This document shows positions 6,129 to 37,035 of a stretch of 64,000 bases of DNA, one piece after another. The stretch's first letter is position 1. The number at the start of each line of letters is the position of its first letter. The position numbers and the translations under genes were made by a program. This DNA comes from Verrucomicrobiales bacterium (lineage in GTDB: Bacteria; Verrucomicrobiota; Verrucomicrobiia; Limisphaerales; J093), in the NCBI GenBank assembly GCA_037445715.1, contig JBBIJZ010000003.1, forward strand, positions 19,935-83,934, given 5' to 3'. A model generated the notes under the pieces. It searched no databases and was not told the DNA's origin. It worked only from the letters and a program-made list of their open reading frames with translations.

Positions 6129-7739
6129 ATGGAAACTCCCCGGCGGTTTGATCACCTGGTCATCGGCAGCGGCATCGCGGGTCTGTTCTACGCCCTCAAG
6201 GTGGCCGACCACGGCACCGTGGCGCTGGTCACCAAGAAAACCAGCGCCGAGTCCAACACCAACTACGCCCAGGGCGGCATCGCCTCGGTGATGAGCCCCG
6301 AGGATTCCTTCGAGCTGCACGTGCAGGACACGCTCACCGCCGGGGCCGGCCTGTGCAAGGAGGAGGTGGTGCGCACCGTGGTGCGCGAAGGCCCCGAGCG
6401 GGTGCGCGAACTCATGGCCCTGGGCCTGCAATTCACCGAGCGCGAAGTGCCCGGTCAGCCCGGCCGCCGTGAGCTGGACCTGGGCCGGGAGGGCGGGCAC
6501 TCCAAGCGCCGCATCGTCCATGCCCGGGACATGACCGGCCGCGAGATCGAGCGGGCCCTGGTCGCCGCCGCCGAACACCACCCGAACATCCGCATCTTCG
6601 AGAACCACTTCGCCGTGGACCTCATCACCACGCACAAGCTGGGGGTGGACGGCGTCAACCGCTGCCTCGGGGCGTACGTGCTGGACAAGGCCACCGGCCG
6701 GGTGGAGGTCTTCGCCGCGCCGGTCGTGGTGCTGGCCACCGGCGGCTGCGGCAAGGTGTACCTCTACACGACCAACCCCGACATCGCCACCGGCGACGGC
6801 GTGGCCATGGCCTACCGGGCGGGCGCGGCCGTGGCCAACATGGAATTCATCCAGTTCCACCCCACCTGCTTGTACCATCCCAAGCTCAAATCCTTCCTCA
6901 TCAGCGAGGCCGTGCGCGGGGAGGGCGCCGTGCTGCGTGGCCCGGACGGCCAGGAATTCATGGCCCGCTACGACCCCCGCAAGGAACTGGCCCCGCGCGA
7001 CATCGTGGCCCGCGCCATTGACAGCGAGATGAAACGCACCGGGGCCGACCACGTCTGGCTGGACATCACCCACAAACCGGCGCCGTTCATCATCCAGCGC
7101 TTTCCCAACATCTACCGCACCTGCCTCGAGGTGGGTCTGGACATCACCAAGGAGCCCATCCCCGTCGTCCCCGCCGCCCATTACCAGTGCGGCGGCGTCC
7201 TCACGGACCTCAACGGCGCCACGGAGATCGCGGGACTGTATGCCATCGGCGAAGTGGCCTGCACCGGGCTGCACGGCGCCAATCGTCTGGCCAGCAACTC
7301 GCTGCTCGAGGCGCTGGTCTGCGCCCACCGCGCCGCCCGCCAGGTCCTGGAACGCCCGCTGCCGCCCGGCGACCTGCCCATCCCGCCCTGGCAGTCCGGC
7401 AACGCCCAGAACCCCGACGAGCTGGTGGTCATCTCGCATCTCTGGGACGAAATCCGCCGCCTGATGTGGGACTACGTGGCCATCGTGCGGACCAACAAGC
7501 GCCTCCAGCGCGCCGCCAACCGCATCGCCAACCTGCAGGCCGAAATCCGCCAGTACTACTGGGACTTCATCGTCACCGCCGACCTGCTCGAACTGCGCAA
7601 CATCGCCATCGTGGCGGACCTCATCGTTCGCTGCGCCATGCAACGACCCGAAAGCCGCGGCCTGCACTACAACCTCGATTACCCCCACCCCGATCCCGCC
7701 TGGGCCCAGCGCGACACCGTGGTGCGGCGCGGGGTGTAG
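6129..7739 (+). CDS. nadB: L-aspartate oxidase
   Basis: 536 aa. FAD motif VIGSGIAGL, then [47 protein letters not shown]. Confidence 0.95.
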
Positions 7740-7750
7740 CCGGTGTAATC

Positions 7751-7835
7751 CCACAAACCGTAGTGGGCCGTGGCGCAGTGCCTCCCGCCTGCTCAACTTC
7801 GGTCTTTGGGTTCAATCGCGCAGCGGGGTCGTCTC
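7751..7835 (+). repeat. Copy A of a ~50-90 bp intergenic repeat family (core 7765..7813)
   Basis: The core gggccgtggcgcagtgcctcccgcctgctcaacttcggtctttgggttc matches the reverse complement of 13880..13928 at 45 of 49 positions (manual alignment). Weaker similarity continues on both sides. Confidence 0.75.
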
Positions 7836-8115
7836 ACGTTCCCGCCGTTTGCTTTGGCCCGGACACAACCCCCCATAGTGGCGCGGGCGACCCCGCCTGC
7901 CGTGAGGCATGCGGTCGCGATGCCAAAAAAGCTGAAAAAAAGATTGACACCGCGCGCCAAGATGATGACAGTCCACCCAGTCCTGCGCTGGAGGACTTAA
8001 GACGAGGTGAAGGATAAGACATTGCAACATTCAGACTGGGACTGCTGCGCCAAGGGGTGTGGCAGACTGTGGCTGCGCCCACGGCACACCGGCTTAGGAA
8101 CAGCGCAGGGCTTGT

Positions 8116-9420
8116 GTGCTCCCCCTGCGTGGCTCAACCCTTCCCGGCTTGGACATCCGTCCTTCGTCCCTGGTCGTTGATCTTGGTCGCCGTCTTCGTT
8201 CTGCGCTCCGCGTTCCGCATTCCGCTTTCCTGTTCATCGAGTTATTGATGGCGCTGGCACTCTGCGGTGTTTTGGCTCGCTCGCAGGTGGCCACTGCCGA
8301 GCCTACACCAAGCCCGGCTCAGAGGTATGCTGTGCCGGAGCCGTCGCTGGTGCGCGATCTTCTGCTGACAGAGGCGCGGGGCATTGTTGAGGGACCCGAG
8401 TCCGCTGCTCAGGCAAACCCTGTCCAGCAGCCTTGGACGAGAGACGGCAGCCAGCCGTTCCGCGACGCGATCGCTTCACACGTCCCGGTCAAGCGGCTGG
8501 TGTTTCGATATTCACGCAATCACATAACCGACCTTACCAATCCCAGGAAGCCGACGTACCCGCCGGGATTTGACGAGTTCGAAGGCGCGGTCCAACCTTC
8601 AGGGTACTACTTGTTGAAGCTACCTCACTCTAGCGCAAGGGTAGACAATCACAATCCCGTTGGAGAAACTCTGGCAAGCGGTGCTTCCTCCTGTTTCTGG
8701 TGGCAACTGAATGATAATTACGATTCCCTTCGCGTTGCCACAAGGAACAATGCCAAATGGCCTATGGATCCCGTAGCCGTGGTTTGTACGATGGACTTCG
8801 ACAAACTCGCCGAAGTCGCCCACTGCGGTATGCTACACATCGCAGACGCCGATATTCGTTGGTTGGATCCACGCCGCTTCCGCGCTGAATCCCAACGTTT
8901 CGGCATACTTGAAGGCCAGATTGCTTCCTTTGATGACACCGGTCGCCCAACGCGCCTTTGGTACCACTCGCCGACCAATTCTGTCATTGGCTCGTTCGAC
9001 ATCTGTTACAGTTACAAGGATGCGACGCTGTTCCCCCCATCCACTATGATTGTCCGTCGCACCGGCCCCGGCCAGAATCGGCCTCCCTACACCAACATCA
9101 TACTTTCCTACGACCCTGGACTTCAAATGGAGGCGACAAACGGATTTGTGCCATCGCAGTTCCGGCGCAAGAGCCAGCCGCTCGCTACTTTCATCGTATA
9201 TTCTAATTCCGTTCGCTACAAAGTGCTGCCTAACGGACAGTGGTATCCCGCTCCGGAGTCGGAGTGGGAGACGCCGGGATTGGCTCCTCGCTCGGCTACC
9301 ATGGCCGCGAGTTCCTTTACCTTCGCGCTTGCGGTTCTCGGCTTCGCTGCCACGGCTCTGGCCACGTGGCAGCGCGCCAAACAACCTAGGCCAGTAGAAA
9401 AGGAAAGACATAGAATATGA
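8116..9420 (+). CDS. Large pilin-like protein (prepilin-type N-terminal cleavage/methylation-like motif) with C-terminal TM anchor; function unknown
   Basis: 434-aa ORF starting at GTG 8116. Residues 34-50, PHSAFLFIELLMALALC, fit the class III signal motif (A|F-x-x-x-E5-LL). They parallel NSHAFTLLELL in the pseudopilin at 11893..12825. The C-terminus has a hydrophobic helix plus basic tail, FTFALAVLGFAATALATWQRAKQPR. The first ATG (8248) would cut the motif, so an upstream non-ATG start (GTG 8116 or TTG 8149) is likely. Confidence 0.6.
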   Translation: MLPLRGSTLPGLDIRPSSLVVDLGRRLRSALRVPHSAFLFIELLMALALCGVLARSQVATAEPTPSPAQRYAVPEPSLVRDLLLTEARGIVEGPESAAQANPVQQPWTRDGSQPFRDAIASHVPVKRLVFRYSRNHITDLTNPRKPTYPPGFDEFEGAVQPSGYYLLKLPHSSARVDNHNPVGETLASGASSCFWWQLNDNYDSLRVATRNNAKWPMDPVAVVCTMDFDKLAEVAHCGMLHIADADIRWLDPRRFRAESQRFGILEGQIASFDDTGRPTRLWYHSPTNSVIGSFDICYSYKDATLFPPSTMIVRRTGPGQNRPPYTNIILSYDPGLQMEATNGFVPSQFRRKSQPLATFIVYSNSVRYKVLPNGQWYPAPESEWETPGLAPRSATMAASSFTFALAVLGFAATALATWQRAKQPRPVEKERHRI

Positions 9421-9722
9421 AGTTCGTTCAACGTTCGGCACTCTTCTCCGGGGTGCTCCTGATTGTCGTGACAGCCAACGCCATCTGCTGGTTGAACAGT
9501 GTGACGGAGTGCCCGAGCGCCATCAGGGATGGTGGCAATCCATGCGTTCTCGATCCATGGCCACAGCCTTGGTACCCGATGGCGCGAAGTGCCGCCACCG
9601 GTTTCGCCACGCTCGCGGGCGATGGACTGAAGCACTGTCAATATAAGTGCACGGGACCAAACGGGACGTACACAACAAGATACTTCGAAGGTGTGAACGC
9701 TACCGGATCCAGTTGCCCGTAG
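9417..9722 (+). CDS. Small secreted cysteine-rich protein (about 79-aa mature, 6 Cys), unknown family
   Basis: 101 aa. Its start overlaps the upstream stop (ATGA at 9417..9420). Signal peptide MKFVQRSALFSGVLLIVVTANA. Six Cys occur in the mature part, which also has NGT and NAT tripeptides. Confidence 0.55.
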   Translation: MKFVQRSALFSGVLLIVVTANAICWLNSVTECPSAIRDGGNPCVLDPWPQPWYPMARSAATGFATLAGDGLKHCQYKCTGPNGTYTTRYFEGVNATGSSCP

Positions 9723-9740
9723 CCGCGCCCAATGACTCGC

Positions 9741-9768
9741 TCCGGGGGCGGTTGTTGCCACCCCCGGA
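9741..9768 (+). promoter_or_regulatory. GC-rich hairpin just downstream of the small Cys-rich gene (possible intra-operon attenuator or processing site)
   Basis: tccggggg(9741-9748) cggttgttgcca cccccgga(9761-9768). This gives a perfect 8-bp stem and a 12-nt loop. No U-tract follows. Confidence 0.3.
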
Positions 9769-9832
9769 AGCCTGCTGAGAAACGTCGTATGCCTGATGAC
9801 CGAATGGAGGGGGACGACCTTAGTCTCCGAGA

Positions 9833-10327
9833 ATGAAGCACTTCATCCTCATGGCAGATTCCCATTCCCCCATACCGGCCGAAGGTCCCACCCCGGCATC
9901 TTCCCGCCTGCACCTGGTTTTGGTCGCTGTGTTGTTGCTTCTTCTTGGCGGAGCCAAGCTGGCTGGCCTCTGGGAAGCACGGGCCTCGGAAGACGCAGCA
10001 ACACTCGATCCGGTGCTGGGCATTTCGTCCGTACGCATCAGCTTACTCATGGGTTTGCTTGAGCTGATTTGTGGCATTATGATCCTCGCGCTCTGGTCCA
10101 ACCTGACTGCAGCTTACACATGCACCATGCTTGGAATGGCGTTTATCAGCTACCGTTGGCTAATAGCGACGTTCAGCACGACAAGCGAACCCTGCGGCTG
10201 TCTGGGAGTGGCGCGTAGCTGGCTGGGCGCGCTGAGGCAATACGAAGACAATGTTCTGGCGGCAACGGCGGTGTTCATATTTGTGGTCGGTGTCTGTGCC
10301 TGGCTGCGTGAGAAGCGCGTTTTATGA
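9833..10327 (+). CDS. MauE/DoxX-like four-TM membrane protein with CGCxG motif
   Basis: 164 aa with four predicted TM helices. The motif EPCGCLG (Cys codons at 10193..10201) lies before the last helix, matching the DCGCFG signature I associate with the MauE family. The stop overlaps the next gene's start. Confidence 0.55.
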   Translation: MKHFILMADSHSPIPAEGPTPASSRLHLVLVAVLLLLLGGAKLAGLWEARASEDAATLDPVLGISSVRISLLMGLLELICGIMILALWSNLTAAYTCTMLGMAFISYRWLIATFSTTSEPCGCLGVARSWLGALRQYEDNVLAATAVFIFVVGVCAWLREKRVL

Positions 10328-11883
10328 GCATGAGACGTCATTGGAATAGTACGATCCCGTACTACCTGATAGTACCGGTGTTGTTTCTCTTGCTGGTAAG
10401 CAGGTGTCCGATTGAGAGCGCGCTGTCAATCGGAGGCGACGATGGTTTTGAGCTCGCGAAGTCACTACTCGTGGCCAGAGCGCCCGAAGCCGCGCGTGAC
10501 ATGTACAACGACCAGCCATGGTTGCACACACTGGTCATTGGTCAGTTGTTTCGATGGTTCGGACCCCACGCGAGTATTCCCCGCCTTGTGTCCGTCATCT
10601 CCGCCCTTGCCCTAGTTGTCGCCCTTGGCTACCTGGCGAGCCGCACCGGCGGGGGCCTCGAGGTGATTCTGGTGGGGCTGTTCTTTCTCTCCAGTGAATA
10701 CATCACGACGGCGGCGCTGGCAGCCATGGTCGAACTGCCTGCCGTGGCTTGGGCGATGGTCGCTTCGACCATTTTGATCGCCAGCGAGCGCAACCACTGG
10801 GGATTCCGGGGTATTCTGCTGTCTGGAATCATGCTTGGGCTGGCCTTGAGCCTTAAACTAACGGCCGTAATTGTGATTCCGGCAACGGCGGTGTACCTTC
10901 TGGCGCAGCGCAGGTTGCGGGCTGCTTTTTGGACATGTAGTGCCTGGGTAGCTATCGCTGCGGCCTGTTTCACCGGTGTAGCCTTGTTGAGCCCGAGGTG
11001 CTCGTTTGATGAGCTGTGGGGTAGCCATAGCTTGGCCCGCCAGGCTCTGTCGCCCGAGCAGATGAAAACCTGGGCTTTTCATGGTTACCATTTTGTAACA
11101 AACCCTGCCCTGACTTTTGCGGCCGGACTTGGCCTGATTCGCGCGGTTCGGAGGCGGGAAAAAGAACTGATTTATGCCACCGCGCTCCTCGGTACCGCGG
11201 TTGTCATTGCGATTTTTCAGCGCCCCTGGTGGGGGTACTACGTGATCCATTTTTACACTCCCATGTCCCTTCTCGCTGCAGCCGCAGCCGGCGACGTTAT
11301 GTACGCGGTGTTCTCCCGGACAAAGGCTTTCACTGCGGTGTTTGCCAGATCAGCCGCGCATGGCTTCGGGATTGAGCAGCCTGCGTCCCGCTCTGCCATG
11401 ACATTTGCCTGTGCTGTAGCAGGGCTGGCTATGATCATCGGTTTGTGGAGTGGATTTACATTACCGAGATGGCTGTACGAAATCGGGAGCATCGAACAAG
11501 TTCGCCGGGCTGAGAACAGCGTTGTGTGCAGAGCAATGCGGCAGTACGTCACCGAGGTGAAATGGTGTTATACACCAGAAAGGGAATACGCCTTTCACGC
11601 TGGTCTTTTGGTGCCACCCGAGTTGATTGTCCTGTCAATCAAGCGTTTCCTGACGGGGTCACTCACAAACAAGAAAGTTCTTGAAGTCCTTAAACGCTAC
11701 GAGCCCGAACTGCTGCTGTTGAGTAAGCGGGACCTGAAGTTGCATGGAGAGTTGTCACAGTGGGTTCGTCTGAATTATACGTTGGTTGAGCAAGAAGACA
11801 TTGTCGAACTGTGGGTTCGCCGTGAAATCGCCAGGAATCCCCTCGGCGCTAGTGACCCCCGGCTTGTCGCCTGGAAGCTTTGA
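10324..11883 (+). CDS. GT-C fold membrane glycosyltransferase (ArnT/PMT, GT39/GT83-like)
   Basis: 519 aa. It is polytopic (about 10 or more hydrophobic helices). The first loop has an acidic motif, SIGGDDGFELAKSLL, followed by NDQPWLHTLVIGQLFRWFG, which resembles the DE/PPL region of PMT_2/ArnT enzymes. A C-terminal soluble domain follows. Start overlaps the upstream stop (ATGA at 10324). Confidence 0.6.
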   Translation: MSMRRHWNSTIPYYLIVPVLFLLLVSRCPIESALSIGGDDGFELAKSLLVARAPEAARDMYNDQPWLHTLVIGQLFRWFGPHASIPRLVSVISALALVVALGYLASRTGGGLEVILVGLFFLSSEYITTAALAAMVELPAVAWAMVASTILIASERNHWGFRGILLSGIMLGLALSLKLTAVIVIPATAVYLLAQRRLRAAFWTCSAWVAIAAACFTGVALLSPRCSFDELWGSHSLARQALSPEQMKTWAFHGYHFVTNPALTFAAGLGLIRAVRRREKELIYATALLGTAVVIAIFQRPWWGYYVIHFYTPMSLLAAAAAGDVMYAVFSRTKAFTAVFARSAAHGFGIEQPASRSAMTFACAVAGLAMIIGLWSGFTLPRWLYEIGSIEQVRRAENSVVCRAMRQYVTEVKWCYTPEREYAFHAGLLVPPELIVLSIKRFLTGSLTNKKVLEVLKRYEPELLLLSKRDLKLHGELSQWVRLNYTLVEQEDIVELWVRREIARNPLGASDPRLVAWKL

Positions 11884-11892
11884 AGGTGTTGC

Positions 11893-12825
11893 ATGAGAGT
11901 GCGAATCACGGTCAATATAGCTGGCAGCCTCGTGCCCGGTCACACGATTTACAGAACATATGTTTCGAACGATCGATGCCAAGGCATGTGTAAACGGGAT
12001 CAATCATGTCTGTCGTCGGAGAGGATCGTGCCCCCTGTCTTCATCAATTCACACGCGTTCACGCTCCTCGAGTTGCTGGCGGCTGTAACCATCCTGGCGA
12101 TACTTGCAAGCTTAACCATGGCCGCGGTCCATGGAGCGAAGAAACGCGCCACGAACGCCAACTGCATTTCGAATGTTCGACAACTTGCTGTTGCACTGCA
12201 AACGTTTGTCACGACCACCGGACAGTATCCGTTGGACTTCAATCCCGGGCGCATATTCCCTGAGCATGGAGTAAGCTGGGAAGGTTCTCTGTTCAGCAAC
12301 GACGAACAGTTGGCGCTCATGGACCGGAAGACACCAGGGGGGTCTTACAAGGGCGTCCTGCGATGTCCGGCTCAACGCCAGCCGGCTGATTGGGTCCCTG
12401 TTCCTGGGCGCGGTGTTTATATGTATTACGGCTATAATCAGGATGGCCTTATTGGCCCACAGCCTGGAAACAGCCTGGGTTTGGGCAAGCACATCGAGCC
12501 GAGCGGTGCCGTTCGGCCAGTGTCGGAGAACGAAGTGGTGAAGCCGGTGGAGATGGTGGCCATCGGTGACGGTTTCCGGGGTTGGGGCGGAAGGATAGAT
12601 GATGGCACTCAAATGCTCGGGAGAGACGCGAGAATGCTTTCCCTTGTTTCCTTCGGTGGGGACAGGCGGGCGCGCGCGCGGCACCAAGAAACGGCTACGA
12701 TTGCGTTTTGTGATGGGCATGTGGCGCGGGTCAAACTCGATTTCCTGTTCAAGGATACAGCGGATGAGGCGCTGCGCGTGTGGAATCGCGACAATCAACC
12801 TCACCGTGACCGCCTGACGCCCTGA
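11893..12825 (+). CDS. Prepilin-type N-terminal cleavage/methylation domain protein with H-X9-DG C-terminal motif (pseudopilin-like)
   Basis: N-terminal motif NSHAFTLLELLAAVTILAILASL, then CISNVRQLAVALQ. The C-terminal RHQETATIAFCDGHV is an exact H-X9-DG. ATG 11893 is preceded by GAAGGTG, which looks like an SD sequence. An alternative ATG at 11986 would give a shorter leader. Confidence 0.85.
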   Translation: MRVRITVNIAGSLVPGHTIYRTYVSNDRCQGMCKRDQSCLSSERIVPPVFINSHAFTLLELLAAVTILAILASLTMAAVHGAKKRATNANCISNVRQLAVALQTFVTTTGQYPLDFNPGRIFPEHGVSWEGSLFSNDEQLALMDRKTPGGSYKGVLRCPAQRQPADWVPVPGRGVYMYYGYNQDGLIGPQPGNSLGLGKHIEPSGAVRPVSENEVVKPVEMVAIGDGFRGWGGRIDDGTQMLGRDARMLSLVSFGGDRRARARHQETATIAFCDGHVARVKLDFLFKDTADEALRVWNRDNQPHRDRLTP

Positions 12826-12873
12826 TCATGAATTGCTTCGGCAACTTTATCTGTAGCGCGGCGACCAGCGTCT

Positions 12874-13815
12874 TTGTTAGACACGTCGGGTAACGTTGTT
12901 CATGGTCCGTTCCGATGCCTCGCCAAGGCGTGGACTCTGTGTCATGCGGCTGCTTCGCCCAATGGTTGCCAGGAGCAGCAGGATCCCGTGAAGGTCAATG
13001 TAACTCTGCCGGTATACAATGAGGAAGCGCAGCTTGGGACGAACGTCCGCCGCGTTATCGAGTTCTTGCGGACGCAGGGGTGGGATTCGGAACTCGTGAT
13101 CGCGGACAACGGCTCGAGGGATGGGACACTGGAGATCGCCAGGGGCTTGGAGCAAAGGGCGTCGAGCGAAGCGCCCAGTACACTGATGTCAGATGAAAGA
13201 TCGGAGACAGAAGGACGGGGGCAGAAGCCAGATGATCGTGGAGGGAGAACCGAAAGCGGTGAGCCAAGGAATAAGGGCGAAGAGCAAAGAGGGAAGACCA
13301 ACGTCCGAGTCGTTCACCTCGATCTCGCCGGGCGGGGTCGGGCGCTGAAGACGGCGTGGCTGGCCAGCGAGGCGGAGGTGCTGAGCTACATGGACGTGGA
13401 TCTCTCGACCGAGCTCACTCATCTGCCTGCATTGATCGAAGCAATCAGCCGCGGACAATGCGATGTGGCGATTGGCTCGCGCTTGTTACCCGAATCGAAG
13501 ACCACTCGCGGCTGGAAACGCGAACTGCTCTCGCGCGGGTACAACTGGCTTTTGCGCCTGGCGTTGGGGTTGCGGGTTCACGATGCCCAATGCGGCTTCA
13601 AAGCCCTCTCGCGCGCGGCCGCCCGCGCCTTGTTGCCGCAGGTGCGGGACATTGGTTTTTTCTTCGACACGGAGTTGCTGGTGCTCGCGCAGCGGCAGGG
13701 CTACTGCATAGCCGAGCTGCCCGTACGCTGGGTGGATGATCCGGATTCGCGTGTCCGGTTGGCGCGCACGATTTGGGAAGACCTGAAGGGCGTCTGGCGG
13801 CTGCGCCGCCGGTGA
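12874..13815 (+). CDS. GT2 family glycosyltransferase, polyprenyl-phosphate sugar synthase type (Dpm1/GtrB/ArnC-like)
   Basis: Motifs: VTLPVYNEE, VIADNGSRDGT, SYMDVDLS (DxD), AIGSRL, RVHDAQCGFKAL. The track start is TTG 12874. GTG 12988 (VKVNVTLPVYNEE), preceded by AGGAG, is a more likely start. A charged insertion of about 48 aa (residues ~96-143) interrupts the fold. Confidence 0.85.
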   Translation: MLDTSGNVVHGPFRCLAKAWTLCHAAASPNGCQEQQDPVKVNVTLPVYNEEAQLGTNVRRVIEFLRTQGWDSELVIADNGSRDGTLEIARGLEQRASSEAPSTLMSDERSETEGRGQKPDDRGGRTESGEPRNKGEEQRGKTNVRVVHLDLAGRGRALKTAWLASEAEVLSYMDVDLSTELTHLPALIEAISRGQCDVAIGSRLLPESKTTRGWKRELLSRGYNWLLRLALGLRVHDAQCGFKALSRAAARALLPQVRDIGFFFDTELLVLAQRQGYCIAELPVRWVDDPDSRVRLARTIWEDLKGVWRLRRR

Positions 13816-13857
13816 GGGATCGTGGCGGAGTGCTGGGGCATGCCGAATGCCAGATTC

Positions 13858-13945
13858 CAGAAGCTCTGGACCCCGGACCGAACCCGAAGACCGAAGTTGA
13901 GCAGGCGGGACGCACTGCGCTACGGGCCAACTTCGGCTTTCGGAC
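13858..13945 (-). repeat. Copy B of the intergenic repeat family, inverted relative to copy A (core 13880..13928)
   Basis: The reverse complement of 13880..13928 matches 7765..7813 at 45 of 49 positions. Its arms ccgaagaccgaagtt and aacttcggctttcgg are themselves near-inverted repeats. Confidence 0.75.
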
Positions 13946-14569
13946 TGGACCGGTTGTTTCCGTGACCGCTGGCCCGACGGCCGGGCTTGGTGGTTTGTGA
14001 ATTATTTCACCAGGGAAAAAATGCTGGTCAATCCAGCCATAGTACATGCCATGCGCAGCAAGAGCGGCCTGATGGCCGCCGGCCAGACCGGCCTTGAGCC
14101 CAAGCCATGATCGACAAACTGTTGAAAAACAAGTGTTTGGGAAAACAAACCAGCAGAACTGGCTCTCTTTCAAACGCCTTGGGGCGGCCCTCCACGACCC
14201 GGAATGGGCGTTACCGGGCCTTTGGATTGGCGTATGGCGGTCTGGCGGCGCGTTCCAGGGATTTTGTTGTCAGGTCCAGCGTCACGATGGAGCGCAGTAA
14301 AAGCGTTGCGGCGTGTTACCGCGCTTTTGTAGCGCGGTACAAAGGTCTTGTTGCGCCGCACCAAACTTCTGGATGACGATCCAGTGGCCTTGGAAGGCCC
14401 AGGCGCATCCGGATTTTGCGTTGTCCTTGACAGACCGGTTTGGGTTGAATATGCAATCACACGCCACCAGGACAGACGAGGGCCAGGACGGGCGTCTGGG
14501 TCGCTTGCCTGCCGCGGGACGGGAAAACAACACAGTCGGCCAACCATCAACCTCCGGGAAGGGAACATC

Positions 14570-14935
14570 ATGCCAGTCGCACCCAAAGTCATCGAAGAGA
14601 GCACGAATCGCATCCTCCGGGCGTGGGAAACGCTCGCGGCGGACCAGACGTTCGCCGGGATGTCGCTTGAACAATTCAAGGAGAAGGTCAAGCCGTCCTT
14701 TGACGCGCGCGCGGCGATCGCGAGTCTGGAGCAGGAGATGACGGCGGCGATCAACCGGCGCGACGAAGCGGACCGGGAGACGCAGCGGCTGGCCGGCTTG
14801 GTGGTGAACTCGGTTAAGGGCGACCTGGCGTTTGGCGAGGACAGCGACCTGTACGAGGCGATGGGCTACGTGCGCAAGAGCGAGCGCAAGACCGGGCTCA
14901 CGCGCAGGAAGCCCGCGGCCGGGGCCCAACCGTAG
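14570..14935 (+). CDS. Hypothetical protein (121 aa, predicted helical or coiled-coil)
   Basis: Trimmed from track ORF 14348..14935 to ATG 14570 (MPVAPKVIEESTNRILRAW). I recognise no motif. The coding call rests on ORF length, non-repetitive composition and a GGGAAGGGAA purine tract upstream. Confidence 0.45.
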   Translation: MPVAPKVIEESTNRILRAWETLAADQTFAGMSLEQFKEKVKPSFDARAAIASLEQEMTAAINRRDEADRETQRLAGLVVNSVKGDLAFGEDSDLYEAMGYVRKSERKTGLTRRKPAAGAQP

Positions 14936-15264
14936 CCAGGGCAGTTCTGGCGGGGTGACGCGACAGCCCGTCGGGCGGGAAGCCCGGCGCTACAGCAGGC
15001 AGGGAAGCCTGCTGCTACCGGCGGGGCCTCCTGCCGCCCCGCCTGTTTGAAGGATTTCTGAGGAGCGAGCGCCGCGAGCCCCAAACTCTCCCTCCGGCCA
15101 AGACGCGGCGTGCCCTGCCGTGCCTGGAGATGGCCTCGCTCAGGCAGGGCACCGCTGTGTCGGCGTCGGTTGGGGGCCGGCCTCTGGCTCAGCAGCCGGG
15201 TCTGTCGCCCCTCGGCGAGGGGCGACCCACCTTGTCGAGCCGCAGGCTCGACGCTACACCAACC

Positions 15265-15315
15265 GCAATGGCAAAAGCCGAAATCCGAAGTCAAAGAAAC
15301 GCGGCAGGCGGGAAA
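15265..15315 (-). repeat. Degenerate third copy (C) of the same repeat family
   Basis: aagccgaaatccgaagt...gcaggcggga shares the CCGAAxxCCGAAGT arm (13 of 16) and the GCAGGCGGGA block (10 of 10) with copy B. The remainder has diverged. Confidence 0.4.
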
Positions 15316-15441
15316 GCGAAATGACCGCCCAAAACCGCCGTGGTTGACGGCTGTTGGGCAGCGCGTACCGTGCTTGCGCAACCGCGGACGCCCCGGGCAT
15401 CTGCCGCGTCCGCGGGCCGTGTCCGGTTGGGAGACTGAGTT

Positions 15442-18400
15442 ATGCCTGACGATTCTGTGCGTGCGCAGCCCGCGCCCCGACGCCCCCGTGCCTCGCGTCG
15501 GCTCAAGTGGGCCGGCCTCGTTTTGGCGGCATTGGTGGTCCTGCTGGTGGCGCTGTACCTGGCGTTGACCAGCAGCGCGGTGCTGAAGGCGGTGGTGCTG
15601 CCGCGCGTGGGCGCCGCCTTGAACGCCCAGGTGACCGCCGGGGACATCCTGCTGCGTCCGCTGTCCGAGTTGCGGTTGAAGCAACTGGAGGTCACGCCCA
15701 CCAACGGTCCCACGCTGCTGCGGGCGGCGGACGTGACCGTGCGCTACGACCTGTTCAGCCTGGTCCGGGGCCGGTTCATCCTTCCGGAAATCAGCCTCGA
15801 CCGCCCGGAGGTGAACGTGCAGGTGGCCGGCGACGGCCGGAGCAACCTCGACGCCCTGCTCGCCCGGCCCGCCCCCCCCACCCCGGCGCGGGCCGAGGTC
15901 CCGGAACTGGACCTGGGCACCCTGAGCCTGCGCGGCGGCAGTCTGACCTATTGCGTGGAAGACCCCGCCGGCGGCCGTCAGTGCTCGACCGTGACCAACC
16001 TCGACCTGCAACTGACCGGCCTGAAAAACGGCGCCACGGCCCGGCTCAAACTCGAGGCCCTCGCCGCCCAGGTCAACACGCACCCCGACGGCGCGGCCGA
16101 TTCACTCCGCGCCCGGCTTCAGACCGAGGCCACGGTGGGCCTGAGCCGCCGCCTCACCCTCGAACAAATCGAGGCCAACCTGCAGGCCCGTGTCACGCAA
16201 GCCACCGGCGCTCTGGCGCCGGCAGACCAGTTGTCCGCCTCCCTGGCACTGAACCTCACCCCGGAGGAACTCCGCCAGTGCCGGCTGCGCTTCGAGCGCG
16301 CGGGCCAGTCCCTGGGCGAGGCGCGCCTGTCCGGGCCGTTCCAGCTCGCGCGCAACGAAGGCCGCCTCAGCTTCCAAATCACCGCGGTGGACCGCGCCGC
16401 CCTGGCATTGATTGGCGCGCCGCTGGGCGTGGACTTCGGCGAGACGGCCCTGAGCGGCTCGGGTTTTGTGGACCTGCGCCAGCGCGGGCAGCGGCTCATC
16501 GCCAGCCTGAACCTCGAGGCCCGCCGGTTTTCGGTCAAATGGGCCGGCCGGACCACTCCGGTGCTGGACCTCCAGTTCGAGCTGCGCGGCAACGCCGATC
16601 TCGAGGAACAGACCGCCTACCTCGAGCGTGTGAGCCTGTCGGCCCGCTCCGGGGGACGTGATCTGCTGAACGTCGCCTCCCAGCGCGCCATCAACCTGGC
16701 CTGGAGCCGCGCCGAGCCCCGCGCCGCCGCGCCCGCGGTCGTCAACCTCGCACTCAATGACCTGCGCCTGGCGGACTGGCAGGCCTGGCTTCCCACCAAC
16801 GCGCTCGGGGGCGTGGTCAACGCGAGCGCCACCCTCACCAGCGCCCAGGACGGCCGCCAGCTCACCCTCGACCTCACCAACACCGTCCGCAGCCTGGGCC
16901 TGGCGGCCGGGGGCCTGGCCCTCCAGGACCTGGGCGCGGACCTGACCGCGCGCCTGGCCCTGCAGGACTACCGGATGTTGAACCTCGAACAGCTCGAGTG
17001 GGTCGGCAGCGAGGGCGGCACGGCGCTGGTGCGCGGCCAGGCCACGGCGGCGGTGGACCTGCGCGAGCTCAGCGGCAGTTCCCAGGTCCGTCTCGAGGGC
17101 GAACTGCCGGTCCTGCTGGCCCGTCACCCGGTGCCGGGACTGGACTTCACCAAGGGCCGCGTGCGCCTCAACGCCCTGCTCAACTGGGCCCGCGCCCGCA
17201 CCGCGGCCTCGTTGACCGCCCTGCTGGGCGACCTGGCCGGTCGCGCGGGCAGTTACCGGCTGGACGGTTATTCCGCCGAGTTCGAGCTGAGCGGCGACCT
17301 CGCCGGCGACAAACTCACGCTGCGGCGTCTGGGCCTCAGCGCCCGTGAAGGCACGCGCAGCGGCGGCTCCGGCGACCTCACCGGGCTGGTGGACGCGGCC
17401 ACCCAGACCGCCCAGTTCACCCTCAACCTCAGCGGGCTGAACCAGCTTGCGTTGCGGCCGTTGCTGGCCGGGTTGCCCGGCGGCGTGGAAGTCGCCGCGC
17501 TCCTGGTCAACGCCACCGGCCAGCTCCGGCACGATGCCCAGACCCGCCCCACGGGCCCGCCGGGCGACTTCGCGGCCTTTCAAGGCGTATTGACCTCCCT
17601 GGCCGAAGGCCGGGGAGAAACCACCTTCCGCTTCACGGCCGAGGTGCCGACCCTGGTCCTGACCAACCGCATCCGGGCGCGAACCGGCGCGCTCAACGGC
17701 CTGGCCCTGCAACTGGACGCCACCCGGCGCGGCTCGCAACTGGCGCTGGCGACCAACTGGGTCCAGCTCCCCACCACCGCGCGCGCCGCCACGAACCGGC
17801 TGAACTTCACCGGTATCTTTGACCTGGCCCCCACCAACCCCGCCCCCGCCACCGGCAGCGTGCGGGCAAACGTGCTGGACCTGACTCCGCTGCTGGACTT
17901 CGCCACGGTCCGGGAAAGCGCAGAGACCGCGCCCGCGCCGGGCCCCGAGACCGAGCCGGACCCGGTGGAACTGCCGCTGCGCCAGCTCACGGCCGAACTG
18001 CAGGTGGAGCGGTTGTACCTACGGGACCTGGTCCTGCGGGACTGGACCGCCCGGGCCGAGGTGCGCGACGGCCAGGTCCGCATCCAGCCCTGCACGCTGC
18101 GCGTGGACGACGCGCCGGTGTCGGCCACGGTCCGGCTGGACCTGACCCGGCCGGGCTACGCGTATGAATTCGGGCTGGACGCCGCCGGGGTGCACCTGGG
18201 GCCGCTGGTGGACACGTTCTCTCCCGAGTACGCCGGGCAAATCCAGGGCGATCTCCTGGCCAAACTCCAGCTCCGCGGGGCCGGCCTCACCGGCCCGAAC
18301 CTGCAACGTCACCTCCGGGGTCAGGCCACCTTGGACACCACCAACCTCAATTTCCAGATCGTCACCCCGCGCGCCAGGAAACTCCTGACCGCCCTGGCCA

Positions 18401-19029
18401 CGGCGCTCCGGCTCGAGGCCCTGGCCACCTCGCCGTTGGACACCCTCGGCGCGCGCCTGGAAATCGCCGAGGGTCAGGTGGCCGTTCGTCCGTTCACCGC
18501 CGGCAGTGCCGCGTTTCGGGCCACGGCCGAAGGCGTCATCCGCCTGGCGCCGGTGCTGACCAACTCACCCATTGACCTGCCCGTGCAACTGGCGTTGCGC
18601 ACGGACCTGGCCCGCCAGATCAAGCTGGCGCAGCTCACCCCTTCCACGCACACCAACTTCCTGAACCTGCCGCCGCTGGTGAAGATCAAGGGCACCCTCG
18701 GCGCGCCCGAAACCGAAATTGACAAGCTGCGCCTGACCGCGCTGCTGGCCGGCAGCGTGGGCGGAGCCCTCGGCGGCACCGCCGGCGAGGCGGTCCAGGG
18801 CGTGAGCAGCCTGCTGCAGGGCAATGTGGGCGCCGCCGTGGACTCCCTGGGCCAGTTGCTCCCCGGCCGTAAACCCGTCGCCCCCACCAACGCCCCGCCG
18901 GCGACCAACTCGCCACCGCGCACCAACGCGCCGGCGGCCGGGACCAACGCCCCGCCCGCGGCCCCGACCAATCCGCCGCCCCGGCCGAGTGTGCTGGACC
19001 TGCTCGAGGGCCTTCGCAAACGGAACTGA
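15442..19029 (+). CDS. AsmA family / TamB-like large envelope protein
   Basis: 1195 aa. N-terminal anchor WAGLVLAALVVLLVALYLAL, followed by an AsmA-like start (VLPRVGAALNAQVTAGDILLRP...ISLDRPEVNV). The body is long, beta-rich and low in Cys. The C-terminus has a Pro-rich TNAPP repeat tail. Confidence 0.75.
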   Translation: MPDDSVRAQPAPRRPRASRRLKWAGLVLAALVVLLVALYLALTSSAVLKAVVLPRVGAALNAQVTAGDILLRPLSELRLKQLEVTPTNGPTLLRAADVTVRYDLFSLVRGRFILPEISLDRPEVNVQVAGDGRSNLDALLARPAPPTPARAEVPELDLGTLSLRGGSLTYCVEDPAGGRQCSTVTNLDLQLTGLKNGATARLKLEALAAQVNTHPDGAADSLRARLQTEATVGLSRRLTLEQIEANLQARVTQATGALAPADQLSASLALNLTPEELRQCRLRFERAGQSLGEARLSGPFQLARNEGRLSFQITAVDRAALALIGAPLGVDFGETALSGSGFVDLRQRGQRLIASLNLEARRFSVKWAGRTTPVLDLQFELRGNADLEEQTAYLERVSLSARSGGRDLLNVASQRAINLAWSRAEPRAAAPAVVNLALNDLRLADWQAWLPTNALGGVVNASATLTSAQDGRQLTLDLTNTVRSLGLAAGGLALQDLGADLTARLALQDYRMLNLEQLEWVGSEGGTALVRGQATAAVDLRELSGSSQVRLEGELPVLLARHPVPGLDFTKGRVRLNALLNWARARTAASLTALLGDLAGRAGSYRLDGYSAEFELSGDLAGDKLTLRRLGLSAREGTRSGGSGDLTGLVDAATQTAQFTLNLSGLNQLALRPLLAGLPGGVEVAALLVNATGQLRHDAQTRPTGPPGDFAAFQGVLTSLAEGRGETTFRFTAEVPTLVLTNRIRARTGALNGLALQLDATRRGSQLALATNWVQLPTTARAATNRLNFTGIFDLAPTNPAPATGSVRANVLDLTPLLDFATVRESAETAPAPGPETEPDPVELPLRQLTAELQVERLYLRDLVLRDWTARAEVRDGQVRIQPCTLRVDDAPVSATVRLDLTRPGYAYEFGLDAAGVHLGPLVDTFSPEYAGQIQGDLLAKLQLRGAGLTGPNLQRHLRGQATLDTTNLNFQIVTPRARKLLTALATALRLEALATSPLDTLGARLEIAEGQVAVRPFTAGSAAFRATAEGVIRLAPVLTNSPIDLPVQLALRTDLARQIKLAQLTPSTHTNFLNLPPLVKIKGTLGAPETEIDKLRLTALLAGSVGGALGGTAGEAVQGVSSLLQGNVGAAVDSLGQLLPGRKPVAPTNAPPATNSPPRTNAPAAGTNAPPAAPTNPPPRPSVLDLLEGLRKRN

Positions 19030-19058: not shown

Positions 19059-20435
19059 ATGTCTGCCATCCTGGACTACCTGCGCGAACACCACGAGCGC
19101 TTCGTGCGCGACCTGTGCGAGTACGTGCGCTTCCCGAGTGTCTCGGCCCAACCCCAACACCAAAAGGACCTGCGGGCCTGCGCCGAGTGGCTGGTGCAGC
19201 GCTGCCGCCGCATCGGCCTGGAAAGCGAGCTGTGCGAGACCGCGGGGCATCCGGTGGTGCTCGCCCGCACCCCGCGTCGCGCCGGGCGGCGGCGTCCGCA
19301 TTTCCTGGTGTACGGGCATTACGACGTGCAGCCGCCCGAGCCGTTCGAGTTGTGGCAGAGCCCGCCCTTCGAGCCGCGCGTCACCGACTCGGCGGTCTTT
19401 GCCCGCGGCGCCAGCGACAACAAGGGGCAGCACCTGGCCCACCTCAACGCGGTCGAGGCCTGGCTGGCCACCGGCACCGAACTGCCCTGCGACCTGACCT
19501 TCCTCATCGAGGGCGAGGAGGAGGTGGGCAGCCGCAGCCTGGCCGGCTTCTTGCAGGCCCGCCGTGCGGCGCTGCGCTGCGACGCCGTGGTCGTGTCCGA
19601 CACCGGCATGCCCGCGCCCGGCCTGCCGGCACTCACCTACGCCCTGCGCGGCATCGCCGCCGTGGAAATCACGGTCACCGGTCCCGACCGCGACCTGCAC
19701 TCCGGCATCTTTGGCGGCACGGTGGACAACCCGGCGATGGCGTTGTGTCAGATGCTCGCCCCCCTGCGCGACCGCCGCGGCCGGGTGAACATCCCGGGGT
19801 TTTACGACGAGGTCGCCCCGTTGAGCGCCTACGAGCGCCGGCAACTGGCCCGCCTGCCCTTCAACGCGCGGGCCTACCGCCGTTTCCTGGGCGTGCCCCG
19901 GCTGTTTGGCGAGACCGGTTACACCGCCTGGGAGCAGCGCAGCGCCCGGCCCACCGTCGAGATCAACGGCCTGACCAGCGGTTACCAGGGCGAGGGCAGC
20001 AAAACCATCATCCCCGCCTGGGCCCGCGCCAAGCTCACCTTCCGCCTGGTGCCCCACCAGCGGCCCGACCGCATTGCCCGCCTGGTGGTGCGGCATCTGC
20101 GTCGGCTCACCCCGCCCACCGTCCGCGCCCGGATTACCGTCGGCCACGGCGGCGAGCCGTACCTGCTGGACCCGCGCAGTCCGCGGGCGCAGGCCGCGCT
20201 GCGGGCGTTGCGGGCCGCGTTCGGCCGCGAGCCGGTCCTGCTGCGCGAGGGCGGCTCGATTCCGATCGTAACCCAGTTCCGCAAAATCCTCGGGGCCGAG
20301 ACGCTCCTGCTGGGGCTGGCCCTACCGGATGACAACGCGCATTCGCCCAACGAGAAGTTTGACCTGGGCAACTATGCCGCCGGGATGCGCCTGGGCGCCA
20401 CGCTGTGGCCCGAGCTGGCCGCCGCCGGCGACTGA
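19059..20435 (+). CDS. M20 family dipeptidase/metallopeptidase
   Basis: 458 aa. Motifs: VYGHYDVQP, ARGASDNKG, FLIEGEEEVGS, LHSGIFGG, AHSPNE. Confidence 0.9.
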   Translation: MSAILDYLREHHERFVRDLCEYVRFPSVSAQPQHQKDLRACAEWLVQRCRRIGLESELCETAGHPVVLARTPRRAGRRRPHFLVYGHYDVQPPEPFELWQSPPFEPRVTDSAVFARGASDNKGQHLAHLNAVEAWLATGTELPCDLTFLIEGEEEVGSRSLAGFLQARRAALRCDAVVVSDTGMPAPGLPALTYALRGIAAVEITVTGPDRDLHSGIFGGTVDNPAMALCQMLAPLRDRRGRVNIPGFYDEVAPLSAYERRQLARLPFNARAYRRFLGVPRLFGETGYTAWEQRSARPTVEINGLTSGYQGEGSKTIIPAWARAKLTFRLVPHQRPDRIARLVVRHLRRLTPPTVRARITVGHGGEPYLLDPRSPRAQAALRALRAAFGREPVLLREGGSIPIVTQFRKILGAETLLLGLALPDDNAHSPNEKFDLGNYAAGMRLGATLWPELAAAGD

Positions 20436-20614
20436 TTGGCCGCCCCGTTTCAGGGCGATTCGGTGGTTTGGAAGGTCGAAAGGCCGGGAGCGGAAGTCCG
20501 CCGGCCCGGGGCCGGAGTCCACGGCCGGCCGTTGACCGTTCGCACGGGTGCGTTGTCCGCTGAAATCGGCGGTCCGGGTCCGGCGGAGGTCCGGCCGTTG
20601 AGTCTTTGCCTCCC

Positions 20615-31460: not shown

Positions 31461-31540
31461 AAACCACCCAACCGAAAATGACCACCACGACAGAACAAGC
31501 CCTGTTCCCGGTCGGGACCACGCCGATGTCGCCCAACACC

Positions 31541-31603
31541 GCCTTCGGCCTTCGGATTTCGGCCTTCGGATTTCCGGCTTCTGACTCCTGACTCCTGACT
31601 TCT
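31541..31603 (+). repeat. Tandem heptamer array (CCTTCGG / ATTTCGG / CTCCTGA units)
   Basis: gccttcgg ccttcgg atttcgg ccttcgg atttccgg cttctga ctcctga ctcctga cttct. It lies between the barrel gene's stop and the next gene's start. Confidence 0.85.
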
Positions 31604-31608
31604 CCCTT

Positions 31609-34933: not shown

Positions 34934-35035
34934 ATTGACGATTGACGATTGCGGATGGGCCCCGCCCGCTCTGCCTTCGGGCTTCGGGCTTCGGCCTTCG
35001 GATTTCGGATTTCGGACTTCTGACTTCGGGGGCCC
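34934..35035 (+). repeat. Tandem ATTGACG x2 followed by an eight-unit CTTCGG heptamer array
   Basis: attgacg attgacg att (34934..34950). Then gccttcgg gcttcgg gcttcgg ccttcgg atttcgg atttcgg acttctg acttcgg (34973..35029). gggcccc and ggggccc flank the array as a 7-bp inverted pair. Confidence 0.85.
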
Positions 35036-35236
35036 TCGCCCTTCATTCGCCCGTCCAAATTCCCCGGCTCAAATCCCGGATTGGGGCCGCGGTGGGTTGC
35101 CATGCACCTTGACGCCCCGGCCCGGGGGTCTTTATCTATCGCGCCCGATGACCAAGCCCCCGGCGGCCCGCCGCTCATACGCCGTCCGTGCGTCGCGCCG
35201 GCCGCGAGCCGGGCGTAGGCCGGTCTGTCCCGACCC

Positions 35237-36674: not shown

Positions 36675-37035
36675 CCGCCGGGCTGGTAGCCCGGCAGGAC
36701 GGGCCGGTTGCCCGTTCCCCCCCGGAGCGGCACAACGGCGGCAAGCCACCGCACTCGACGCGCCCCGCGCCGCCGTTGGGTCCCACGCACCGCGCGCCAG
36801 CGTTTGGAGTGCGCCAGCTTGCTGGCGCTGTCAGGGCGGCGCGGGGCATGGCAGCCGCGGCGAGCTGTGAACTCAATAGTCCCGCTGCCCTGGCGCCAAG
36901 GTTCATCCCGCGAGCCGGGATGCAAACGGCCCGCCAGGCTGGTAGCCCGGCAGGACGGGCCGGTTGTCCGTTCCCCCCGGAGCGGCACAACGGCGGCAAG
37001 CCACCGCACTCGACGCGCGCCGCGCCGCCGTTGGG
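36675..37035 (+). repeat. Two direct copies of a ~106-bp repeat (36675..36780 and 36931..37035, period 256 bp) with palindromic filler
   Basis: By manual alignment the copies differ by 3 substitutions and 1 single-base indel. Each contains the hairpin ccgggct-ggt-agcccgg. The spacer holds the palindrome gcgccagc-tt-gctggcgc (36811..36828). Confidence 0.85.

Follow-up and report, generated by a model that had tools for sequence, protein, structure and literature searches.

A 7.6-kb insertion of foreign composition between nadB and an asmA-like gene of a verrucomicrobial genome carries a putative extracytoplasmic glycosylation module

The region analyzed here, hereafter referred to as the window, is a 64,000-nucleotide stretch of contig JBBIJZ010000003.1 (assembly GCA_037445715.1, Verrucomicrobiales bacterium; positions 19,935 to 83,934 of the forward strand). 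Between the genes for L-aspartate oxidase (nadB) and an AsmA-like protein, the window harbors seven open reading frames (ORFs), designated i1 to i7, which encode two predicted glycosyltransferases, a pseudopilin, a MauE/DoxX-like membrane protein and three further proteins (Table 1). The first six (8116–13815) are co-directional, with 4-nt start/stop overlaps at i1/i2 and i3/i4 and gaps of 9–110 nt, an arrangement that suggests a single operon. An earlier sequence-only reading of the window had proposed that the interval from the nadB stop codon to the asmA-like start codon is a low-GC accessory island acquired horizontally.

Relatives of the window were located by using its AsmA-like protein, which is poorly conserved, as the query of a protein search; this returned orthologues 48–87% identical to the query, and their contigs were then retrieved. 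These loci are identified by L numbers, with L087 and L088 (GCA_964466945.1) counted as one relative. In five relatives, with AsmA-like proteins 87% (L086), 84% (L087/L088), 85% (L090), 74% (L091) and 66% (L092) identical to that of the window, the gene order panC-nadB-asmA-M20 peptidase is conserved and nadB and asmA are separated by 117–194 bp. Two distant metagenome-assembled genomes (MAGs; L006 and L009, about 28–32% AsmA identity) also show nadB directly followed by asmA. Seven relatives spanning AsmA identities of 28–87% have thus an empty site at the nadB-asmA junction, with a spacer of 70–195 bp, as the sequence-only reading had suggested checking. The flanking DNA of the window is approximately 88–89% identical to that of the three closest relatives (L086, L087 and L090), with homology breaking off at window position 7732 and restarting at approximately 15547. 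In L092, the nadB stop codon TAG is followed by seven nucleotides (TTCCTGC) and by CCGCCGTGATTGACGCCTGTTGGGCAGCGCGTACCGTGCTTGCGCAA, which corresponds to window positions 15335–15380; the insertion therefore encompasses positions 7740 to ~15334 (7,595 bp). On its left it abuts the nadB stop codon; on its right lies a conserved TTGACG...TACCGT box that precedes asmA. With the site empty in seven genomes of graded distance, the parsimonious explanation is that the segment was gained once, on the branch leading to the window.

The composition of the segment departs markedly from that of its surroundings. The GC content of the interval 7740–15441 is 59.3%, versus 69.8% for the rest of the window, and that of the refined insertion (59.1%) compares with 69.6±0.9% (minimum 67.1%) in 413 windows of 7.6 kb outside it. 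A 1-kb sliding profile shows a single deep trough of 54–63% GC from ~8000 to ~14500, with about 70% on both sides. GC content at third codon positions (GC3) ranges from 0.62 to 0.72 in the island genes, against 0.875±0.054 in 31 flanking ORFs chosen with the same selection rule (z = −2.8 to −4.7), and the tetranucleotide usage of 4-kb windows correlates with that of the remaining DNA of the window at r = 0.61–0.68 inside the island and 0.87±0.04 outside it (z = −5 to −7). The proposed low-GC block between nadB and the asmA-like gene is therefore borne out by all three profiles. The five hand-counted GC values behind that proposal agree to within two points with the computed ones, which are 56.7, 55.0 and 55.0% inside the island and 73.3 and 75.0% (originally given as 73%) on the two outside lines. 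Both gene boundaries had been placed correctly (nadB stop, 7739; asmA-like start, 15442), but the insertion ends short of the latter, at ~15334, and its rightmost ~770 nt, comprising i7 and the adjoining spacer, are host-like in composition. The true low-GC block therefore spans only ~7816–14569.

Table 1. Features of the inserted segment and its immediate flanks (positions in the window).
Feature	Position	Strand	Evidence and remarks
nadB (L-aspartate oxidase), left flank	6129–7739	+	Pfam FAD_binding_2 1.9e-100 and Succ_DH_flav_C; GC3 0.92, host composition
Inserted segment, 7,595 bp	7740–15334		Absent from seven relatives; L092 junction; GC 59.1%
Decayed hairpin repeat copy	7749–7815	+	~10 nt past nadB stop; 5' arm mutated; fold no better than shuffles (z 0.16)
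i1, exported protein: N-terminal signal/anchor, predicted beta-rich LolA/LolB-like domain, C-terminal transmembrane helix and basic tail	8116–9420	+	AlphaFold2 model, Foldseek
i2, small secreted protein, 101 aa, six Cys	9417–9722	+	Signal-like hydrophobic segment at residues 8–26; start overlaps i1 stop by 4 nt
i3, MauE/DoxX-like small polytopic membrane protein	9833–10327	+	Pfam MauE 9.5e-7, 29.6 bits vs cut-off 27; at least 3 hydrophobic segments
i4, GT-C membrane glycosyltransferase (PMT_2/ArnT-like), 519 aa	10324–11883	+	Start overlaps i3 stop by 4 nt
i5, prepilin-type (class III signal) H-X9-DG/DUF1559-like pseudopilin	11893–12825	+	Likely start is the Met codon at ~11986
i6, soluble GT2, polyprenyl-phosphate sugar synthase type (Dpm1/GtrB/ArnC/AglJ-like)	12874–13815	+	Pfam Glycos_transf_2 2e-19
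Full hairpin repeat copy, TTCGGNN arms, loop CCGTAGCGCAGTGCGTCCCGCCTGC	13866–13950	−	RNA fold −43.6 kcal/mol, z = −4.55, 0/200 shuffles as good
Low-GC (58%) stretch, 619 nt, without convincing gene	13951–14569		No frame with coding GC pattern
i7, 121-aa orphan ORF	14570–14935	+	GC1/2/3 0.65/0.46/0.88, host-like codon composition
GC-rich spacer, 399 nt, 68.9% GC, right end of insertion	14936–15334		Weak repeat-like motifs at 14994–15022 and ~15270–15312; palindrome at 15199–15231
Conserved asmA upstream region TTGACG...GTACCGTG, kept right of insertion	15335–15441	+	Aligns with nadB-asmA spacer of L086, L087, L090, L091, L092
asmA-like/DUF748 gene, right flank	15442–19029	+	Pfam DUF748 6.4e-20, AsmA 1.5e-14; GC3 0.90, host composition

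The first gene of the operon, i1, for which a gene caller set the start at 8248, encodes a protein with no sequence match in Pfam, NCBIfam or the Protein Data Bank (PDB), and a word-indexed protein search returned only i1 itself. An exhaustive HMMER search of 1.84 billion proteins identified a small family of 102 representatives (E ≤ 1e-3), none of which contains a Pfam domain. Family members have in common a signal/anchor, an FRDFLxxPPWIK motif, a beta-rich domain, a C-terminal transmembrane helix and a basic tail. An AlphaFold2 model of i1 reached a mean predicted local distance difference test score of 82.5 with a 45-sequence alignment (36.6 from the single sequence), and the top 26 Foldseek matches of this model in the PDB were almost all LolA or LolB (probability 0.99–1.00, E down to 2.7e-5), with one uncharacterised protein among them. 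Given the modest TM-scores, the fold of i1 may hence be LolA-like; the hallmark of the LolA/LolB superfamily is an unclosed beta-barrel whose helical lid creates a hydrophobic cavity. An AFLFIELL sequence upstream of the called start had raised the possibility that i1 is a prepilin. This candidate was rejected, as the N-termini of the family are ordinary signal/anchor sequences with the conserved FRDFLxxPPWIK motif instead. The small secreted protein i2 contains two N-x-T sequons and belongs to a family with a visible C[YW]xN...CP motif, and its homologues, at most 39% identical, occupy the same position in L085, L095–L099, L107, L108 and L110–112. In L093, L100, L102, L106, L108 and L110–112, an i3 homologue immediately precedes the GT-C gene.

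The i4 product contains at least 8 hydrophobic segments and an invariant GGDDxFEL motif (G37 G38 D39 D40 x F E L, residues 37–44) following the first transmembrane segment (residues 15–33). With these hydrophobic segments and the acidic motif after the first of them, i4 matches the architecture of the GT-C transferases of three-component glycosylation systems. Its homologues are few and distant (best 30–42% identical), and no match was found among plasmids. The i5 translation carries both an HA|FTLLELL signal motif and an exact H-X9-DG (H-QETATIAFC-DG), so that it combines the class III signal and the C-terminal H-X9-DG that define prepilin-type H-X9-DG proteins. It matches Pfam N_methyl above the cut-off (1.8e-5), TIGR02532 IV_pilin_GFxxxE (23.6 bits vs cut-off 16.3) and the GspG N-terminus (5.7e-7), and scores just under the cut-off for DUF1559 (23.1 vs 23.3 bits). 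For i6, which has a low-complexity insert at approximately residues 96–140, the best NCBIfam matches were AglJ (9.5e-15), dolichyl-phosphate hexose transferase (1e-10), ArnC and PpgS, all below their equivalog cut-offs, and the PHROG match was GtrB-like (1.1e-15); i6 is thus a probable polyprenyl-phosphate sugar synthase at the family level only. The orphan i7 showed no match in Pfam, NCBIfam, PHROG or PADLOC, and none in plasmids, phages or any retrieved locus. A perfect 7-bp hairpin, AGCAGGC-AGGGAA-GCCTGCT (~14995–15014), is located just past its stop codon.

The remainder of the island yielded little that could be identified. Translations of ORFs in the stretch 13951–14569, on both strands, gave no credible Pfam match, the two chance-level hits (E 0.06–0.09) falling far below the cut-offs. 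The same two hits were the only ones returned by a Pfam search for decayed integrase or transposase genes in 7770–8082 and 13598–14935 on both strands. Scans for promoter and terminator consensus sequences over the island returned no more matches than in shuffled sequences, no tRNA or Rfam family was detected anywhere in the window, and PADLOC identified no defence system. No prophage genes were found in the island, in which the only PHROG match was that of i6.

Two copies of a hairpin repeat bracket the operon. Positions 7764–7813 and 13880–13929 are 92% identical over 50 nt in inverted orientation, and the extended repeat is an element of ~85 nt with two arms of TTCGGNN heptads pairing around a loop of ~28 nt. 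The sequence-only reading had listed three copies, at 7765, 13880 and 15268. The former two form a genuine inverted pair, but the locus at 15268 was rejected as a copy, since it shares only the motif CCCGCCTGC...ACTTCGG (3 loci vs 0.05 matches expected) and gives no significant alignment; the alignments of the weak repeat-like motifs of the right-end spacer are marginal at most versus shuffles. A copy 94% identical over 54 nt is present in L092 at 15169–15221, between the M20 peptidase and nitroreductase genes, and the window has no copy at the matching place. The 50-nt inverted repeats were also considered as transposon ends and rejected: a target duplication is lacking, one of the copies lies within the insertion, and the L092 copy is found at an unrelated site. 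The inverted copies bracketing the cassette may have been recombination substrates, or they may be later arrivals. The hairpin element is strikingly conserved and position-variable for a lineage in which the L092 AsmA-like protein is only 66% identical to that of the window, and resembles elements of the REP/MITE type. Elsewhere in the window, tandem arrays of the same TTCGGNN heptads (e.g. GCCTTCGGCCTTCGGATTTCGGCCTTCGG) occur at 31527–31607 and 34959–35039, 40–100 nt downstream of the stop codons of two plus-strand genes (a Phenol_MetA_deg-like outer-membrane gene and an FeoB-like gene); these arrays have no Rfam match and their folding is not clearly above that of shuffles.

The gene set is not exclusive to the window. 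The order i1-i2-i3-i4, with or without prepilin, GT2 and GtrA genes, is syntenic in L081–85, L093–L108 and L110–112, placing the same module in about six other metagenomic backgrounds, and an i1 homologue is present, in the arrangement i1-(i2)-(i3)-i4, in every locus that extends at least 2.5 kb upstream of the GT-C gene. The closest cassette, in L110–112 (GCA_021823625.1), has the gene order of the window (i1-i2-MauE-GT-C-prepilin) at 36–43% protein identity and adjoins GtrA and type II secretion system (T2SS) E/F/G genes. A GT2 44–60% identical to i6 follows the GT-C gene in L085 and L096–L102. GtrA genes are found near the cassette in L081–85 and L110–112, and a GtrA-like ORF, read by eye only, lies upstream of i1 in L093. 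In every background with readable flanks the GC content of the cassette is below that of its flanks: 0.34–0.40 vs 0.46–0.53 in L081–84, 0.57–0.64 vs 0.67–0.72 in L100–102, and 0.50–0.56 vs 0.63–0.67 in L110–112. IS3- and ISL3-type transposase genes adjoin the cassette in L081–83. Together with the synteny elsewhere and the depressed GC content, these adjoining transposases indicate that the module acts as a transferable accessory unit of persistently low GC content. Orthologues of the flanking genes are 84–89% identical, versus at most 43% (60% for the GT2) for the cargo, whose matches carry no taxonomy labels. The neighboring genes (prepilins in the style of the Planctomycetes-Verrucomicrobia (PVC) group, sulfatase, fucosidase and T2SS genes) suggest that the hosts of the cassette belong to that group. 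In the low-GC organism represented by L081–L084 (e.g. L081:270–9039), two different PMT_2/GT-C genes, GtrA and a prepilin gene lie in front of transposase genes of the IS3 (rve) and ISL3 types, in what looks like a larger mobile glycosylation locus.

Our preferred interpretation, which we hold with good confidence, is that the segment is a 7.6-kb insertion of foreign composition, gained after the split from the sampled relatives, that carries an extracytoplasmic glycosylation module of the Gtr/Arn type. The insertion took place in this Limisphaerales-like lineage after it had separated from the relatives sampled, and both the foreign composition of the segment and the recurrence of the cassette are directly observed. 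The proposed horizontal acquisition is in this way supported by the empty sites, by the deviation in GC, GC3 and tetranucleotide composition, and by the presence of the cassette in unrelated backgrounds.

Other origins were weighed against this scenario. Absence from relatives can in principle arise by loss, and the segment might be ancestral and deleted from them; nothing specific speaks for this, and it would demand many independent and precise deletions to leave seven relatives at graded distances with compact spacers of 70–195 bp. The seamless L092 junction, the deviant composition of the segment and the lack of any visible cassette remnant in the spacers of the relatives all add to making deletion a very improbable account. 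We regard as similarly far-fetched that the low-GC block is an assembly chimera with DNA from another organism. The window does derive from a metagenomic contig, but a chimera would require two joins, both restoring perfect synteny exactly at an intergenic spacer, and the repeat family that the locus has in common with L092 is found at the left edge of the block and inside it. A more serious contender, though still an improbable one, is that a resident cassette moved from another chromosomal site, its low GC content being intrinsic and maintained. In favor of such intragenomic movement, the cassette is low in GC in every host sampled, 8–12 GC points below its flanks in each readable background; the hairpin repeat, an element of the host lineage, has copies at the insertion and within it, and i7 and the right spacer are host-like in composition. 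However, a GC3 of 0.62–0.72 would be hard for resident genes to keep in a genome with a value of 0.875, neither the 64-kb window nor ~130 kb of close-relative DNA contained a paralogue of any cassette gene, and identity to the best homologues anywhere does not exceed 43% (60% for the GT2).

As for its function, the cassette is inferred from the protein sequences to be a lipid-carrier-dependent, extracytoplasmic glycosylation module of the Gtr/Arn type. In the mechanism that we propose, the soluble GT2 encoded by i6 would load a sugar onto polyprenyl phosphate on the cytoplasmic side of the membrane, and the lipid-linked sugar would then be flipped, the candidates for this step being the MauE-like i3 or a flippase of the host. 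The GT-C enzyme i4 would finally transfer the sugar to an acceptor in the envelope by way of a periplasmic loop with the invariant DD motif. The nature of this acceptor is suggested by the partners i1, i2 and i5, and it could be a lipid, a lipid-anchored component or the co-encoded pseudopilin. The LolA fold is used for carrying acyl chains across the periplasm, and the putative LolA-like fold of the conserved partner i1 accordingly hints at a lipidic or lipid-anchored ligand; the dedicated pseudopilin i5 would suggest a pilin-type substrate or scaffold.

Several observations weigh against the insertion-and-glycosylation interpretation, on either its origin or its function. On the side of origin, there is no target-site duplication at the junctions and no direct repeat flanks the segment, and no integrase, transposase or recombinase domain was detected in any island ORF with Pfam or NCBIfam. 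The L092 copy of the hairpin, at a site that is empty in the window, makes the repeat a dispersed element of the host lineage with variable positions rather than a terminal repeat specific to the island. Because the right ~770 nt are host-like, the insert may be composite. As the cassette has a lower GC content than all hosts sampled, the GC deficit could in part be intrinsic to it and not a clock of recent arrival. The nearest cassette is only 36–43% identical in protein, and no donor lineage was found. On the side of function, no GtrA, SMR or MATE flippase was found in the island with Pfam or NCBIfam, the only small polytopic protein being the MauE-like i3, and no GT2 adjoins the cassette in L110–112. 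The i4 match to PMT_2 (3.8e-6, 27.7 bits) lies barely over the cut-off of 26.1, and i4 has no sequence relative in the PDB, including solved ArnT. The likeness of the i1 model to LolA is modest, with target-normalised TM-scores of 0.40–0.55 and root-mean-square deviations of 7–11 Å.

Comparison with characterised systems helps to place the cassette. Three-component, Gtr-type periplasmic glycosylation relies on a GtrA flippase, a GtrB GT2 that synthesizes undecaprenyl-phosphate-glucose and a GtrC/Gtr* GT-C transferase (PMC11127046; PMC8035078), the GT-C enzymes having 7–13 transmembrane helices and an extracytoplasmic loop with catalytic acidic residues after the first of them (PMC11127046). 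Like these systems, the island has a polytopic GT-C protein and a GT2 of the polyprenyl-phosphate sugar synthase type paired within a single small accessory operon; the operon is horizontally mobile and atypical in composition for its host, and GtrA accompanies the cassette in other genomes. It differs from them in having neither a GtrA/SMR/MATE flippase nor prophage genes, and in four additional conserved partners (the LolA-like, Cys-rich small, MauE-like and pseudopilin proteins). With no flippase recognisable in the island, the cassette would be a variant working like a three-component system and not a member of that group. The ArnC/ArnT modification of lipid A with aminoarabinose offers a second parallel: i4 falls in PMT_2, a Pfam family that takes in ArnT-like enzymes, i6 has an N-terminal match to ArnC (NF007986, 3.3e-7), and a lipid acceptor would fit the LolA-like partner. 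In contrast to that pathway, however, all matches are far below equivalog cut-offs and the island lacks ArnA, B, D, E and F genes. The identity of i4 to any protein found does not exceed 42%, and solved ArnT gave no sequence match with it. In the mycobacterial glycolipid pathway, a polyprenyl-phosphate sugar synthase (Ppm1) and GT-C mannosyltransferases act together with a carrier of the LolA-like superfamily (LprG-LppX) for the lipid-anchored product. The same three kinds of protein come together in the cassette, as an analogy of parts only with no detectable sequence relationship, but the mycobacterial genes do not form a mobile cassette, and i1 is anchored by a transmembrane helix and not lipidated. 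As a piece of mobile DNA, the island resembles small islets or mobile insertion cassettes devoid of a recombinase, being a compositionally deviant intergenic block with inverted repeats near its ends and no internal transposase. It differs from these in that there is no target-site duplication and the repeats are not of the terminal insertion-sequence type, with one copy internal (13866–13950) and another at an unrelated site in a relative.

The partner genes leave room for two further functional readings. The cassette might glycosylate its own pseudopilin i5 or the secreted i2, amounting to pilin or protein glycosylation and not to the modification of a glycan or lipid, in parallel to pilin glycosylation by GT-C enzymes of the TfpW type. 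An H-X9-DG prepilin gene lies directly after the GT-C gene both in the window and in L110–112, the two products being 42–44% identical up to the C-terminus; prepilin genes also adjoin the cassette in L100–102 and L096, T2SS E/F/G genes are close by in L110, and the two sequons of i2 would be compatible with such a role. Adjacency is weak evidence, however, given the very large number of such prepilin genes in PVC genomes; in L093, L094 and L108 no prepilin is detectably adjacent, and the LolA-like partner points to a lipidic ligand. We consider glycosylation of a pilin or secreted protein rather unlikely. Alternatively, and somewhat doubtfully, the cassette could represent an undescribed module, maybe restricted to the PVC group and distinct from Gtr/Arn systems, in which a GT-C enzyme, a membrane-anchored LolA-fold carrier, a small secreted disulfide-rich protein, a MauE-type membrane protein and a dedicated H-X9-DG pseudopilin would glycosylate and hand over a lipid-anchored or pilin-type surface component, spreading as a persistently low-GC cassette without a recombinase of its own.

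Further variation is apparent around the insertion. The NadB protein of the window is 75–81% identical to NadB from Limisphaerales/Verrucomicrobia MAGs, and its C-terminus varies in length, with 536 aa in the window and in L092 and 552–553 aa, including a Pro/Ala-rich tail, in L086 and L087. In the latter two, nadB reads into the TTGACG box ahead of asmA, overlapping it with its stop codon (L086:9826–9883 and L087:9826–9883; window 7690–7739). Truncation of NadB by the insertion can be ruled out, since L092, with an empty site, encodes the same 536-aa protein, and the longer tail of L086 and L087 appears to be a variable feature unconnected with any such truncation. Several strain-specific indels are found in the nadB-asmA-M20 neighborhood. 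In L086, the closest relative, the genes for the M20 peptidase and squalene-hopene cyclase are set apart by an additional ~2.5 kb of its own (L086:14994–17503) that includes an AIPR (abortive-infection-type) gene; the corresponding interval of the window (20435–20561) is just ~125 bp long, and L087 has different genes after M20. Farther downstream in the window, a direct repeat of ~106 nt (96–98% identical) is present at 36675–36780 and 36931–37035, 256 nt apart, between a major facilitator superfamily transporter gene (35237–36646) and an amino-acid permease gene (37130–38539), with a folding energy no better than that of shuffles.

The precisely mapped insertion and the graded empty sites make this island of an uncultured verrucomicrobial lineage a clean textbook example, which adds little that is new on horizontal transfer as such. 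A small, horizontally acquired glycosylation islet is likewise ordinary as a kind, and it is the gene set, uncharacterised to date, that is mildly interesting. The cargo is a conserved module of five to six genes with no characterised member, linking a GT-C enzyme to a protein of putative LolA-like fold and an H-X9-DG pseudopilin. Genes for H-X9-DG pseudopilin-like proteins are very numerous in Planctomycetes and Verrucomicrobia, and we know of no role for them. A cassette that pairs one such pseudopilin with a glycosylation enzyme provides a concrete, testable handle on this question, and bears on cell-surface variation at the strain level, for instance in recognition by phages or predators.

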